Part shown: positions 1,673-28,526 of the stretch, piece by piece
Layout: each line of letters starts with the position of its first letter
Numbering within the stretch: position 1 is the stretch's first letter
From: Syntrophus aciditrophicus
Lineage (GTDB): Bacteria > Desulfobacterota > Syntrophia > Syntrophales > UBA5619
Length of the DNA stretch: 64,000 nt
Assembly (NCBI GenBank): GCA_020726025.1
Contig: DYTH01000001.1
Coordinates: 102 to 64,101, forward strand
Direction of reading: 5' to 3'
Notes under the pieces: generated by a model
Databases searched by the model: none
The model's input: only the letters and a program-made list of their open reading frames with translations
Told to the model about the DNA's origin: nothing
Made by a program: the position numbers and the translations under genes

Positions 1673-2218
1673 ATGAAAGCGAAGCTTAATGTTCACAAAA
1701 CGGAGTTTAATGTTCACAAAGCGAAGCTTAATGTTCATAAAACGGAGCTCGATCTTTACAGATATGCATTCATTGACGAGGGAAACTGCTCGCCGCAAGA
1801 TCTCGATGATATTGTAGAAATCGAAAAGGATTCGTTTTCCTCGCCCTGGTCCAGGGCTCTTTTTTCCGCCGAGTTGAAGAACCCGATCTCCCGAATTCTT
1901 GTCATGAAAACACTGCATCAGGACAGGGAAACCATCGCTGGTTACGCCGTTTACTGGCTTGTTGCCGACGAACTGCATCTGCAGAAAATCGCCGTCCGCA
2001 GGGAAATGCGAAACCGTGGACTGGCCGCAGCGATTTTGCGGGAGGCGTTTGCAGTTTCGTCGTCGCAAAATATCATGAAAGCGACGCTCGAGGTTCGCGC
2101 ATCCAACCTGCCGGCTTATCATCTCTACCGTAAATTCGATTTTTCTGTTAAGGGGAAGCGTCTCCGATATTACGACGACACAGGCGAAGATGCGCTCATC
2201 ATGTGGCGTGATCTTTAA
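1673..2218 (+). CDS. rimI: Ribosomal-protein-alanine N-acetyltransferase (GNAT) with a repeat-encoded N-terminal extension
   Basis: DLDDIVEIEKDSFSSPWS aligns with the E. coli RimI N-terminus. GNAT acetyl-CoA motif LQKIAVRREMRNRGLAAAIL. ATG 1673 is the only in-frame ATG/GTG/TTG before the conserved core. Confidence 0.75.
   Translation: MKAKLNVHKTEFNVHKAKLNVHKTELDLYRYAFIDEGNCSPQDLDDIVEIEKDSFSSPWSRALFSAELKNPISRILVMKTLHQDRETIAGYAVYWLVADELHLQKIAVRREMRNRGLAAAILREAFAVSSSQNIMKATLEVRASNLPAYHLYRKFDFSVKGKRLRYYDDTGEDALIMWRDL
1679..1741 (+). repeat. Three tandem 21-nt units of a dispersed repeat (GCGAAGCTTAATGTTCACAAA / ACGGAGTTTAATGTTCACAAA / GCGAAGCTTAATGTTCATAAA)
   Basis: Read directly from the sequence. 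The period is exactly 21 nt and the units are in frame with rimI (heptads AKLNVHK/TEFNVHK/AKLNVHK). Confidence 0.95.
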
Positions 2219-3069: not shown

Positions 3070-3998
3070 GAAAAGAAAACGGCGAGGGGCTCAAACTGGA
3101 TGTCTCTATCGGTTCGCTGACTCTGAAGAACCCCGTCATGACGGCGTCGGGAACCTTCGGGTACGGTGAGGAATATGCGCAGTTTTTCGATCTGTCCCGT
3201 CTGGGGGCCGTGGTGGTGAAGGGGCTATCCCTGCTGCCGAGAATGGGAAACCGCCCGCCCCGGATTGTGGAGACGCCCTGCGGGATGCTCAACGCAATCG
3301 GGCTCCAGAATGTGGGGGTCGAGACGTTTATTGACGAAAAGCTTCCCTTTTTAAGACAATTCGACGTGAAGGTGATTGCCAACATCTTTGGCGAATCCGT
3401 CGAGGAGTATCAGAAATTGTCTGGTATTCTTTCCGGTGTGGACGGGGTGCATGCGTTAGAGGTCAACATCTCCTGCCCGAACGTCAAGAAAGGGGGCGTC
3501 GTTTTTGGAACGGATCCCGAGGTGGCGGCTCTTGTGACGCGGAAAGTGGCGGCAGAGACGGATATTCCCGTTATCGTGAAGCTTTCTCCGAATGTCACCG
3601 ATATCGCGCTGATGGCCCGGGCGGTTGAGGAGGCGGGCGCCGACGCCGTTTCCCTGATCAACACGCTGACGGGAATGGCGATCGATAGTGAATCGAGACG
3701 CCCCCTTCTGGCAAACATTACCGGCGGCCTTTCCGGTCCGGCGCTGAAGCCCGTCGCCCTGAGGATGGTCTGGCAGGTGGCTCATGCCGTCAGGATTCCG
3801 GTCATCGGCACGGGCGGGATAACCTCTTTCCAGGATGCCCTTGAATTCCTGATCGCGGGCGCCGCGGCCGTACAGGTCGGCACGGCCAATTTTGTCAATC
3901 CGCTGGCAACGATGGAGATACTCGACGGCATCAAAGACTATATGGAACGCCATGACATCATGGATATCCATGATGTTATTAATTCTTTACGCGCCTGA
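3060..3998 (+). CDS. pyrD: Dihydroorotate dehydrogenase 1B catalytic subunit
   Basis: [31 protein letters not shown] and GTGGI motifs typical of class 1 DHODH. Confidence 0.9.
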
Positions 3999-4298: not shown

Positions 4299-4412
4299 AG
4301 GGCTTACGCCATTATAGCGCATCCCCGATGCGGATACGCACGCGAGAAGGGAACGTTAAAGGCCAAATTTTCGAACAGTCGTCAAAAACGCAGTCATAAT
4401 GATGTGTTAATC

Positions 4413-4437
4413 AATGTTGCGGCGCAACATTTTTTTG
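4413..4437 (+). terminator. Second rho-independent terminator candidate
   Basis: AATGTTGCG-G-CGCAACATT palindrome running into a T7 tract. The AATGT...ACATT stem ends are the same as in the terminator at 4172. Confidence 0.55.
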
Positions 4438-4603
4438 AGACCGCCCATCAGCGCCCTGTGATGGCGGCCATAGTAAAGAGTCGATACCCTCTTTCGAGGG
4501 GATAAAACTCGGAGATTCTTGCATTTGGCTCGGATTACTTCCTGCGTGGGATGCTGAGATTTGATTGCCCACTGTATTCCATACAGAACCAAAAATCGTT
4601 GCG

Positions 4604-14531: not shown

Positions 14532-14619
14532 GCCTGGGTGGCGGAACTGGTAGACGCAAGGGACTTAAAATCCCTCGATCCTTGTGGTTGTGCGGGTTCG
14601 ATTCCCGCCCCAGGCACCA
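14532..14619 (+). tRNA. tRNA-Leu (anticodon UAA), class II with long variable arm, encoded CCA
   Basis: Cloverleaf folded by hand. Acceptor GCCTGGG/CCCAGGC. Anticodon stem AGGGA/TCCCT with loop CTTAAAA. T arm GCGGG-TTCGATT-CCCGC. Discriminator A followed by CCA. Confidence 0.9.
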
Positions 14620-14775: not shown

Positions 14776-14876
14776 CGTCATTCCGGTGAAAACCGGAAAG
14801 CGAAGCTTAATGTTCATAATCCAGAGATTTCAACGCGTTACATAAACACTGGACACCGGTTTTCACCGGTGTGACG
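14776..14876. repeat. REP/MITE-like element: 21-bp inverted arms flanking a ~59-nt core
   Basis: Left arm CGTCATTCCGGTGAAAACCGG (14776-14796). Right arm CCGGTTTTCACCGGTGTGACG (14856-14876). The arms are complementary at 19 of 21 positions. The right arm supplies the spurious GTG 'start' (MTTFYESIN) of the MFS ORF. Confidence 0.7.
14800..14820 (+). repeat. Single copy of the 21-nt dispersed unit (GCGAAGCTTAATGTTCATAAT), nested inside the inverted-repeat element
   Basis: Matches unit 3 of the rimI array at 20 of 21 positions. Confidence 0.9.
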
Positions 14877-26457: not shown

Positions 26458-27792
26458 TCATTCATGCGGCATCGACAGGCTTGCGCCGATTTTGCGGGCA
26501 ATCCGGCGAACCTGTTCCATGACTTCATTTTCGTCGATTGTTGTAAGGCGTCGATTCTTCATGACAACCTTTCCATTGATGAGGACTGTCTCCACGTCGG
26601 CGCCGCTTACGGCGTAGGCAAGGTGGGAATATTCGTCGTACATCGGCGTGAGGTGCGGTTTGTTCATGTCGAGGATAGAGATGTCAGCCTTTTTGCCGAC
26701 CTCGATGGTTCCGACGAGATCGCCCATCCCGAAAACCTTCGCGCCGTTTGCGGTTGCCATCCGGATGACTGTCTCCGCGGACATGACCCTCGGGTCGAGA
26801 CGTGCCGATTTTTCCAGTTTTGCCGCCGTATCCATCTCCTGAAACATATCGAGGTTGTTGTTGCTGGCGCATCCGTCCGTTCCAAGCCCGACGGTTATCC
26901 CCTTTTTGAGCATCGCGGAAATGGGGGCCACGCCGGAGGCAAGTTTCATGTTGCTTTCGGGGTTATGCACCACCTTGCAGCCGTAATCGGCAAAGATGGC
27001 AATGTCTTCGTCATCCATGACGACGCCGTGAAACGCGATAAAACGCTCATCGAGAATACCGGCCTGTTCAAGAAATTTTGTCGCGCGCATGCCGAACTTC
27101 TTTTCCAGTTGAACGGCTTCATTCATGTTTTCGAGAAGATGGGTGGCAAAGGGGACGCGATAACGATCGGCCAGCTCCCTGGCCGATTGAAGCAGGGCGG
27201 GCGAACAACTGTAGAGGGAATGGGGTTCCACCATCGTTCTGATAAGCGGGTCGTCGGCCCATGTCCTGATGAGATTCTCCGCACGAATCAGACACTCGGC
27301 AGGCGTTTTGCAGGCCGGCGATGGGAAATCGAAAAGGCCTTCCCCGATGATGCAGCGCATACCGGCCTGTTTGGCGGCGCGGGCCGTTTCTTCCTCGAAG
27401 AGGTACATGTCGGAAAAGGTCGTCGTTCCCGATTTGATCATTTCCGCGCAGGCAAGCAGGCTGCCCCAGTAGGCCAGCTCCGGATTTACATTACGGGATT
27501 CGGCCGGGAAGATATACCGGGTGAGCCAGTCCATAAGCTCCATGTCGTCGGCAATTCCCCGGAAGCAGGTCATCGCGGCATGGGTGTGGCCGTTGATGAG
27601 CCCCGGCATGATGATGCTGTGGGGATTGTCTATTGTCTCTTTTGCGGTGTACATACCCAGCAGCTCTTTTTTGTCTCCCACGGCGACAATTGTATCTCCC
27701 GTGACGGCGACAGCCCCTTCATGCAGTTTTACATTGTCCCGATTCAGCGTCAGGACCGTTCCCCCCGTAATCAAAATGTCCGCGGATTTCAT
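26458..27792 (-). CDS. mtaD: 5-methylthioadenosine/S-adenosylhomocysteine deaminase (amidohydrolase)
   Basis: DILITGGTVLT N-terminus, metal-binding LINGHTHAAM, and HLLE, HGV and GTDG motifs of the MtaD/ATZ-TRZ amidohydrolase group. Confidence 0.8.
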   Translation of the reverse strand: MKSADILITGGTVLTLNRDNVKLHEGAVAVTGDTIVAVGDKKELLGMYTAKETIDNPHSIIMPGLINGHTHAAMTCFRGIADDMELMDWLTRYIFPAESRNVNPELAYWGSLLACAEMIKSGTTTFSDMYLFEEETARAAKQAGMRCIIGEGLFDFPSPACKTPAECLIRAENLIRTWADDPLIRTMVEPHSLYSCSPALLQSARELADRYRVPFATHLLENMNEAVQLEKKFGMRATKFLEQAGILDERFIAFHGVVMDDEDIAIFADYGCKVVHNPESNMKLASGVAPISAMLKKGITVGLGTDGCASNNNLDMFQEMDTAAKLEKSARLDPRVMSAETVIRMATANGAKVFGMGDLVGTIEVGKKADISILDMNKPHLTPMYDEYSHLAYAVSGADVETVLINGKVVMKNRRLTTIDENEVMEQVRRIARKIGASLSMPHE

Positions 27793-27806
27793 TCAGATAG
27801 CTCCCT

Positions 27807-27827
27807 ATTGTGAACATGAAACTTCGT
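27807..27827 (-). repeat. Copy of the 21-nt dispersed unit on the minus strand (ACGAAGTTTCATGTTCACAAT), 15 nt upstream of the mtaD ATG
   Basis: Reverse complement read directly. It is preceded by ATGAAA and followed by AGGGAG, the mtaD SD. Confidence 0.85.
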
Positions 27828-27977
27828 TTTCATCAGTGCCGGGGCGTATAGCAAAAAAATGAATGGGCCTCAATCAATTAATTTATTCATGCACGATGTG
27901 AAGCGATGAGCCCTGTGCGATCTCATCAGGTCATGATCACTCTGCCATGGGACGCGGCAATCTTCTCTTCAGAGAAA

Positions 27978-28019
27978 GCGAAGCTTCATGTTCACAAAAC
28001 GAAGCTTCATGTTCACAAA
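27978..28019 (+). repeat. Two tandem 21-nt units (GCGAAGCTTCATGTTCACAAA, ACGAAGCTTCATGTTCACAAA) upstream of dtd
   Basis: Read directly. Exact 21-nt phase, ending 58 nt before the dtd ATG. Confidence 0.95.
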
Positions 28020-28076
28020 CAGCTTGATGAATGAACCGATTATTGATATCAGACTCGCGGATGAAGGACGAATGTC

Positions 28077-28526
28077 ATGCGGGCTGTCGTACAGAGGGTC
28101 GAATCGGCCAAAGTTTCTGTAAGTGATCGATCTGTTTCTGAAATTGGAAAGGGCGCGGTTGTTTTTTTAGGCATTGAAGAGGGCGACGGCAAGCCGGATG
28201 CGCAGTATCTTGTGGACAAGATCGTCCATCTGCGCATCTTCGAGGACGAATCCGGAAAAATGAACCTGTCGCTGCTCGATGTCGATGGTGAAATGCTGGT
28301 CGTTTCGCAGTTTACCCTTCTTGGCGATTGCCGGAATGGACGGAGACCCTCTTTCACGCAAGCGGAAAAACCGGGGCTGGCCCGTCCCCTGTACGACTAT
28401 TTCCTCTCCCTGATGAAAATGAAGGTACGGGTGGCGGTCGAAGGCGAATTTCAGGCAATGATGAAGGTGCATCTTGTCAACGACGGCCCGGTCACCATGC
28501 TTTTGGACAGTAAAAAATTATTTTAG
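28077..28526 (+). CDS. dtd: D-aminoacyl-tRNA deacylase
   Basis: MRAVVQRV start, SQFTLLGD, GRRPSF, and NDGPVT near the C-terminus. Confidence 0.9.
   Translation: MRAVVQRVESAKVSVSDRSVSEIGKGAVVFLGIEEGDGKPDAQYLVDKIVHLRIFEDESGKMNLSLLDVDGEMLVVSQFTLLGDCRNGRRPSFTQAEKPGLARPLYDYFLSLMKMKVRVAVEGEFQAMMKVHLVNDGPVTMLLDSKKLF

Follow-up and report, generated by a model that had tools for sequence, protein, structure and literature searches.

A 21-nt insertion repeat in the mtaD/dtd spacer

The window analysed here, a stretch of 64,000 nt from the Syntrophus aciditrophicus contig DYTH01000001.1, carries three copies of a 21-nt unit in the spacer between the divergent genes mtaD and dtd. We are highly confident that this 21-mer is a site-specific insertion repeat and that the small upstream open reading frames (uORFs) in the spacer are its by-products. 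As judged from aligned loci, additions consist of whole units placed after GAA, with their orientation fixed. They enter unique DNA, other repeats and genes, and the occupied sites differ between close relatives. We infer that the unit is a selfish element, which is not autonomous and is mobilized in trans.

The window contains seven units in total, three in the mtaD/dtd spacer and four elsewhere. A 20-mer search allowing up to three mismatches finds 7 matches in the window against 0.00 expected from 100 shuffles. In a position-weight scan the seven units score 36-43 bits, the best of 20 shuffled windows reaches 17.5 bits, and nothing lies between. The identities of the genes next to the units were confirmed as an amidohydrolase (MtaD-like), Dtd, RimI and an MFS transporter. 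The spacer is organized as follows.

27793-28076: mtaD/dtd spacer, host of the three units
27808-27828, minus strand: 21-nt unit AACGAAGTTTCATGTTCACAA, mtaD side; flanked by ATGAA (left) and TAGGGAG (right)
27977-27997, plus strand: tandem unit 1, AGCGAAGCTTCATGTTCACAA, dtd side; inserted after CAGAGAA
27998-28018, plus strand: tandem unit 2, AACGAAGCTTCATGTTCACAA, dtd side
27801-27806, minus strand: Shine-Dalgarno sequence of mtaD, AGGGAG; host sequence, 8 nt upstream of the mtaD ATG (27792-27790)
27789-27833, minus strand: 14-codon uORF, MKTKFHVHNRELSE and stop; its TGA overlaps the mtaD ATG as ATGA
27933-28034, plus strand: 33-codon uORF, MITLPWDAAIFSSEKAKLHVHKTKLHVHKQLDE and stop; runs through both dtd-side units and stops 42 nt short of the dtd ATG (28077)

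The initial annotation of the window had described three units inverted across this spacer, two uORFs with these translations, one overlapping the start of mtaD as ATGA and the other leaving 42 nt to dtd, and an identity of 28/33 between the mtaD-side copy and the copy at rimI. All of these are found in the sequence, the last by direct comparison. No promoter, terminator or known RNA motif was detected in the spacer, and the Rfam 15 covariance models gave no match in 27650-28150 at E≤1. The sole Rfam match of the whole window at the gathering threshold is a tRNA.

Filled and empty sites in orthologous spacers

Close Dtd homologues were searched, their contigs were fetched and the spacers were aligned with the window. 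The divergent mtaD/dtd order is kept in two relatives, L185 (Dtd 83% identical) and L184 (87%), and all three units are missing from both spacers. On the dtd side the alignment makes both exactly 42 nt shorter than the window, with empty sites CAGAGAA/ACAGC in L185 (CTCTTCAGAGAA/ACAGCTTGATGAATGA) and AAGAGAA/ACAAC in L184 (CTCAAGAGAA/ACAACTTGAAGAATGA). On the mtaD side the unit is likewise absent from both relatives, whose spacers are about 21 nt shorter; L185 reads CACTGAGGCA/TAGGGAGTATCTGAATG there and is 21 nt shorter by count. To be noted, L185 retains the AGGGAG Shine-Dalgarno sequence (within TAGGGAGTATCTGAATG) and the start context of mtaD. Neither uORF is present in L185 or L184, and thus no uORF is conserved at the orthologous position; the region of the dtd-side uORF is 42 nt shorter in these spacers and diverged upstream.

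An exact look-up of Dtd returned a single match, a 99.7%-identical strain (L180, a metagenome contig of the Joint Genome Institute, JGI) with the same units, which reads AGCG at the second tandem unit (window 27998-28018). A closer lineage, represented by L181, L182 and L183 (Dtd 94% identical), has at least two units on the dtd side, and all three contigs end inside the array. Among distant mtaD homologues from a metagenome scan (80 loci, 61-74% identity) we found no unit and no neighbouring dtd. Judging from these alignments, the window lineage gained three units, one next to mtaD and two next to dtd; in the relatives the spacer works without units.

The contig starts of L181, L182 and L183 also illustrate that short-read assemblies are fragmented by the repeat, so that copy numbers in metagenome-assembled genomes (MAGs) are underestimates.

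Units inside the RimI N-terminus

A second filled/empty series is found at rimI, with units that are part of the coding sequence.

1678-1740, plus strand: three tandem units, directly behind ATGAA at the start of rimI (ATG 1673)
1741-1761, plus strand: a fourth unit, older and degenerate, AACGGAGCTCGATCTTTACAG (TELDLYR); alignment with the empty L190 leaves 21 nt in excess here, and the protein N-termini agree

The three units are translated in frame as AKLNVHK-TEFNVHK-AKLNVHK, and RimI homologues differ in length in 7-residue steps. Their N-termini compare as follows (identities are to the RimI of the window).

P0124, 80% identity: MK/YVFLD..., 0 units
P0123, 79% identity: MK[AKLNVHK]YKFLD...
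P0121, 98% identity: MK[TEFNVHK][AKLNVHK]AKLDLYRYAFID...
Window RimI (query): MK, three units, then TELDLYRYAFID...
P0122, 91% identity: MK and three units, in an order that differs from the window

The DNA alignment gives the same picture, with L190 empty (ATGAA/ATATG) and the number of units rising from one (L191) to two (L192) to three (window). With zero to three units at one ATGAA/ATATG site, the ATGAA of rimI is therefore its start codon followed by AA, which opens a Lys codon.

Among the RimI proteins of close relatives (P0121-P0125) only the number of heptapeptide blocks after Met-Lys, from 0 to 4, differs, which makes them a natural test set for effects of insertion on protein function. 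Gene callers list these proteins as 167, 174 and 181 residues.

Distribution and landing sites in other genomes

A scan of a 596-Gb collection with one genome per species matched at least 99 stretches. Among the matches listed, 52 contain the complete unit including its A[AGT]C prefix, and 51 of these 52 lie in Syntrophus, Syntrophaceae, Syntrophales or "Deltaproteobacteria" MAGs; there they span at least 15 species representatives of Syntrophales-type MAGs. The 47 prefix-less stretches listed are nearly all single matches in unrelated taxa, and from the degeneracy of the pattern and the size of the collection we estimate roughly 140 chance matches. As far as sampled, the repeat family is confined to Syntrophus/Syntrophales genomes. 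A scan of viral contigs gave three chance matches, all of them lacking the hairpin prefix.

Many copies are nested in longer repeats, where paralogous copies offer further filled/empty comparisons. MITE-A, a MITE (miniature inverted-repeat transposable element) of one Syntrophus MAG, has an empty copy at L008:3705-3835, while other copies hold exactly 21 or 42 extra nt at three internal GAA/T sites. The filled sites are CCCGAA/T, CGGGAA/T and, on the other strand, GCGGGAA/T, so that units occur in both orientations relative to the MITE. The second host repeat, MITE-B (CGTCATTCC-hairpin-GGAA/TCCAG), is empty in four loci (L034, L116, L118 and L162), while about ten loci are filled, some of them at both inverted ends. 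It also hosts the remaining unit of the window:

14799-14819, plus strand: single unit AGCGAAGCTTAATGTTCATAA, at CCGGAA/TCCAG inside the host repeat, which resembles repetitive extragenic palindromes (REPs) and their inverted doublets (REPINs)
14776-14876, plus strand: host repeat with CGTC-tagged inverted hairpins CGTCATTCCGGTGAAAACCGGAA ... CACCGGTTTTCACCGGTGTGACG, between a tRNA gene (14532-14616) and the MFS gene

Taken together, presence/absence speaks for mobility at three orthologous sites (dtd side, mtaD side and rimI) and four paralogous MITE sites. Three other sets of loci, namely a livM/livG-like junction (L005, L050 and the window), an RlmL/AI-2E spacer (L092, L007 and L051) and the group L021/L085/L032, were too diverged or lacked a whole host repeat.

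Units are also found within genes other than rimI. Compared with E. coli CarA (1bxr_B), one CarA homologue has exactly 7 residues inserted, KRSLMFI, right at the 21-mer. A Gfo/Idh/MocA oxidoreductase begins with MK[TKFNVHK][TKFNVHK]EIRIGVVGTG, with two units before the Rossmann fold. In L093, a unit at GTGGAA/TTTGGG introduces a stop into an IS91-like Y2_Tnp transposase gene. Elsewhere tandem arrays comprise 2-5 units. The units thus add heptapeptide blocks to real proteins such as RimI and CarA. Furthermore, annotation is misled by the spurious uORFs and N-terminal extensions that they produce, and they break metagenome assemblies.

Several observations concern the hosts rather than the unit. 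The CGTC-tagged family to which window 14776-14876 belongs is widespread in Syntrophales MAGs, where the 3' foot of its hairpin is a favoured site of the 21-mer. A composite repeat of about 190 nt, F3 (GAAACGCCCATGACGG..GGGGATGAA[21-mer]AATGCGAGACCCATCCCC..GAAGGGGAGGAAA..), occurs in at least five MAGs, always with the 21-mer at the same internal position; its loci are L021, L028, L036 (e.g. 3200-3400), L048, L056, L078, L083 and L085. The zinc-finger transposase gene at L093 1-1070, which is the IS91-like one, also carries, close to its 3' end, other small repeated inserts that degrade it.

Anatomy of the unit and its target

For the consensus, 70 distinct copies were gathered via the right half of the unit, so that the left half was not pre-selected. 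It reads ARCGAAGYTTMATGTTCAYAA and is exactly 21 nt long in every filled/empty comparison, additions being exact multiples of this length. The left flank is GAA in 50/56 first units, most often as ATGAA (13), GGGAA (9), CCGAA (7) or CGGAA (5), and the base after the last unit is T in 29/54 and A in 22/54. The target is accordingly the position directly 3' of a pre-existing GAA and before T or A, with a single orientation relative to the site. We consider GAA to be target and not cargo because the clean empty sites already have it (the dtd side, rimI, MITE-B and the three sites of MITE-A); the exception is the diverged mtaD-side site of L185. Owing to the AA ambiguity at the junction, a 2-bp target duplication and a flush insertion are indistinguishable.

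The 3' tail, AATGTTCAYAA, is almost invariant. The left half, AARC-[GAA]-GYTT, can form a C:G-closed stem of 4 bp with a GAA loop, which covers 11 of the 21 nt; the more frequent subfamily has it as the d(GCGAAGC) mini-hairpin. This predicted feature of every unit is located for tandem unit 1 as follows.

27976-27986, plus strand: predicted single-strand mini-hairpin AAGC-GAA-GCTT with a d(GCGAAGC) core, left half of the unit

Stem pair 2:8 is G:C in 43 of the 70 copies, A:T in 18, T:A in one and G:T in one, and it is unpaired in seven. None of 500 shuffles reached the observed covariation score, which collapses when the register is slid. We take this as suggestive evidence for the stem at the sequence level. 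With DNA parameters, the minimum-energy fold that ViennaRNA gives for single units is the mini-hairpin, at -0.6 to -1.7 kcal/mol. For d(GCGAAGC) a melting temperature of 76.5 °C has been described, and standard thermodynamic models miss its stability (PMC13037366, Hirao review).

The two halves occur together 73 times and apart 2 + 2 times. The idea that the unit represents the fused ends of a larger element was therefore rejected. The 21 nt correspond to 7 codons; two of the three sense frames are open, and the antisense orientation has stops in two frames. Insertion in the sense direction is thus tolerated in genes, as in the RimI N-terminus, the surface insertion of CarA and the Gfo/Idh/MocA N-terminus.

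Orientation relative to genes

Orientation was counted against gene calls of a codon log-likelihood model that had been trained on these loci; the calls are crude, but correct for the known genes of the window. Copies outside MITEs point toward a gene start in 14 and toward a gene end in 5 informative contexts, and those inside ORFs are sense in 8 and antisense in 2 cases. In 10-kb neighbourhoods, 26 non-MITE copies follow the majority gene strand and 10 oppose it (p = 0.011). In contrast to the free-standing copies, MITE-embedded ones are divided into 11 toward a start vs 14 toward an end. For all copies, the top strand of the unit lies on the locally G-rich strand 44:23. The bias thus belongs to the free-standing insertions, and several causes are possible: targeting of single-stranded DNA (ssDNA) of the lagging-strand template, selection against antisense stops, or a preference for ATGAA, which is enriched at starts.

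The non-random orientation seen at the four loci of the window is therefore borne out by the census. The initial annotation had stressed that the element faces the downstream gene at all four. This is true, but in a divergent spacer it is automatic, so that only two of the four loci are informative.

Alternative explanations

The same annotation had proposed a portable translation-initiation or leader module, which supplies an ATG and a Shine-Dalgarno-like tail and makes regulatory uORFs. The uORFs and the ATGA overlap exist, ATGAA is the commonest left flank, and the preference of non-MITE copies for gene starts and for the sense strand of ORFs would suit such a role. At rimI, however, the supposed ATGAAA head begins with the gene's own start, after which orthologues have 0-3 units. 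The supposed GGAG tail lies outside the consensus; it is the start of the next unit at rimI (AACGGAG...) and pre-existing flank at mtaD. Since AGGGAG is kept in the unit-free L185, the mtaD Shine-Dalgarno sequence does not come from the element, and start codons persist in the orthologous spacers without units. In addition, the distance from a unit to the next start codon varies from 13 to >150 nt, and units also occur in frame in carA, in MITEs either way round and in a transposase gene that they disrupt. We regard a leader module as very unlikely. Both uORFs are best read as by-products of insertion, because the unit is open in two of three sense frames and often lands after a pre-existing ATGAA. 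A unit landing there makes a short ORF, hence the uORFs and the ATGA overlap. The earlier interpretation is thus partly supported: the element is a discrete portable module unlike a REP-type palindrome, while the apparent leader is an insertion by-product, which is sobering for the original claim. A variant would let the insertions be selfish but the three spacer units co-opted, either as an ATGA-coupled uORF tuning mtaD or through altered spacing of the divergent promoters. The stop/start overlap is a classic arrangement for translational coupling, and the units are retained in the 99.7%-identical strain and in the lineage with 94%-identical Dtd. Yet no function is required to explain it, as an insertion after ATGAA 15 nt upstream of an existing Shine-Dalgarno sequence and ATG suffices; the lack of detectable promoter, terminator and RNA motif in the spacer and the unstable unit number at other loci also argue against co-option, which we consider unlikely.

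Three further explanations were considered. Mobilization of a REP/REPIN-type element by a RAYT (REP-associated tyrosine transposase) is only slightly plausible. The unit is short and abundant and has a small hairpin, CGTC-tagged REP-like repeats in the same genomes host many copies, and REPs can be intragenic too (PMC3733652), but the 4-bp hairpin spans only 11 of 21 nt, the consensus lacks a GTAG or CGTC tag, the arrays are direct tandems rather than inverted doublets, and the sampled DNA has no RayT-like ORF. An operator or other binding site of a DNA-binding protein, with 21 bp as two helical turns and the copies forming a regulon or nucleoid-organizing sites, would account for the very high conservation of the 11-nt tail, for tandem units in 21-bp phase and for the mostly intergenic location. 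Binding sites do not, however, arise as exact 21-nt insertions at empty sites or in MITE stems, or as 7-codon insertions in conserved enzymes; with no dyad symmetry and functionally unrelated neighbour genes, we see hardly any room for this explanation. Least probable of all, to the point of being nearly negligible, is a plain minisatellite that arises by slippage of a local 21-nt tandem repeat with no insertion process. Slippage or unequal exchange fits well the 1-3 copies of rimI in close relatives and their differing variant order, but more than 50 dispersed single units have identical boundaries in unique sequence and 0-to-1 transitions are seen at empty sites. Slippage likely contributes to array length only. 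A DNA-uptake sequence was also rejected, as the units appear as whole 21-nt insertions and not by point-mutation drift.

A possible mechanism

For the site-specific insertion repeat, a mechanism of the ssDNA HUH/Y1 type is suggested tentatively, by analogy with IS200/IS605 and REP/RAYT. The left half would fold in ssDNA into the very stable AAGC-GAA-GCTT mini-hairpin, and the conserved tail AATGTTCAYAA would carry the information for recognition and cleavage. An enzyme of the HUH/Y1 type acting on the hairpinned ssDNA would cut the target after GAA and the unit after YAA, and transfer would occur at replication forks. Arrays would lengthen when a new unit enters at the YAA end of one already there, and/or through slippage or unequal exchange; a part for the latter is indicated by the unit order, which differs between the window and P0122. 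We favour this type of model in view of conservation of the 5' flank alone, a fixed orientation, a constant 11 nt between the hairpin foot and the 3' end, and the strand bias, with top strands in excess on the G-rich, gene-sense strand.

Several points weigh against this reading and its mechanism. At the left junction of the mtaD side the window has GATGAA (27829-27834) and the empty L185 has GAGGCA (about 1395-1400), a two-base difference that is not accounted for by simple cut-and-insert. Some bases next to the element may be brought along or converted by it; the two substitutions, which lie exactly at the junction, create ATGAA, the commonest left flank. The polarity of insertion is derived from outgroups and not from an insertion event followed in real time. 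The sense-strand bias can be explained equally well by selection against antisense stops or by a regulatory role. The hairpin has only 4 bp with a computed energy no better than that of shuffles, and its covariation concerns one pair, essentially in two subfamilies that could reflect shared descent. IS200/IS605-type elements need two hairpinned ends, while the unit has one. Finally, about 0.4 Mb around the copies contains no homologue of RayT (phmmer with E. coli RayT) and no recurrent transposase family, a weak negative from a partial sample. All-against-all clustering of the neighbouring proteins shows that only ABC ATPases and regulators recur, and no Y1-like ORF is present in the sampled DNA around copies. 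The IS91-like Y2 transposase gene beside the L093 unit was rejected as the mobilizing gene, being itself interrupted by the unit.

Relation to known systems

The statement of the initial annotation that no described family has these properties has to be qualified, as the small dispersed repeats (SDRs) of Nostocaceae described by Elhai are a close precedent in behaviour. SDR1-8, from Elhai's work of 2008, are reportedly 21-27 nt long and nested in minitransposons and tandem arrays; their mobility is said to have been deduced from presence/absence, and the structure of SDR4-6 to be backed by compensatory changes. To our knowledge, mobile DNA units of about 20 nt have been described only this once, and we know of no explanation for how they move. 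According to passages of papers citing that work, SDR5 inserts between nt 3 and 4 of HIP1, and SDR-like repeats are reported as absent outside Nostocaceae among the cyanobacteria examined (PMC5861425, PMC4390886, PMC2884548, PMC3116915). Compared by description, these SDRs appear as the closest precedent in behaviour. The shared features are the size of 21-27 nt, nesting in MITEs and arrays including insertion beside itself, precise insertion (here after GAA), mobility by presence/absence, and no known enzyme. A small conserved structure may be another, with one covarying pair here and a non-significant computed energy. In contrast, the Syntrophales unit belongs to another phylum, Thermodesulfobacteriota, has no association with heptamer arrays or HIP1, and is prominent for its in-frame heptapeptide insertions. 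The Syntrophales family would thus be a second, independent mobile system of about 20 nt in another phylum. Its clean anatomy, with exact 21-nt filled/empty sites, a GAA/W target, a fixed orientation and an ssDNA mini-hairpin, makes the mechanism testable.

One cyanobacterial array resembles the unit directly. In Tolypothrix sp. VBCCA 56010 (NZ_JBPAOH010000043.1; L086 6040-6260, minus strand) a tandem array of about ten 21-nt units, ACTCGAAGTTTCATGTTCAGA, matches the window unit at 18/21 positions in the same phase, and it lies between inverted heptamer arrays (GGGGCAT / CCCCATT), a classical SDR context. A BLAST search of plasmids with this array gave no match. The likeness could be chance, given the size of the database, or could reflect shared machinery. 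A more speculative and rather doubtful extension would see the 21-mer as an actively mobile "nano-transposon" of the smallest class of mobile DNA, whose enzyme would read the mini-hairpin and the 11-nt tail and paste after GAA; in view of the Tolypothrix array, it would have machinery or ancestry in common with the cyanobacterial SDRs.

Members of the IS200/IS605 family (with the Y1 HUH enzyme TnpA; IS608, ISDra2) insert 3' of a short target, recognize hairpins and are biased to the lagging-strand template. The 21-mer would resemble them in its short target and fixed orientation, in having no or an ambiguous duplication, in being cleaved at a set spacing 3' of the hairpin foot, which for the unit means 11 nt up to its end, and in the strand bias. 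They differ in length, at least about 100 nt even as PATEs (palindrome-associated transposable elements) against 21 nt with one 4-bp hairpin, and no TnpA was found in the sampled DNA. The analogy would therefore concern a possible mode of action, not membership.

The Rickettsia palindromic elements of Ogata et al. (Science, 2000) are said to be selfish palindromes of 100-150 bp that sit in frame in genes and are translated. In-frame translated insertion is the likeness; there is no relationship in sequence or size. Assignment to the MITEs themselves was rejected, since the unit has 21 nt against about 50-500 bp, has no terminal inverted repeats, and its halves are never the ends of a longer element.

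GTAG- and CGTC-tagged REP/REPIN-RAYT systems have been described (PMC3116915, PMC3733652), the CGTC-tagged REP class in the latter paper. The 21-mer is like them in being short, abundant, hairpin-bearing, mostly intergenic and sometimes intragenic, and presumably moved in trans; it differs by lacking a terminal tag and an extended palindrome and, in the DNA sampled, inverted doublets, and it inserts into REP-like hosts. Literature searches with 15-mers of the unit and for Syntrophus repeats returned nothing relevant.

Another repeated block in the window

Apart from the 21-mer, an intergenic block of 107 nt at window 4365-4471 is 88% identical to L098 3377-3483, and the genome flanks of the two do not align. 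L098 was therefore dropped as an orthologue of the window around 4.1 kb, the shared part being the 107-nt block only. The block has no Rfam match. Its 3' end on the plus strand, GTTGCGGCGCAAC followed by T7, is terminator-like, and the block is possibly a small RNA gene.

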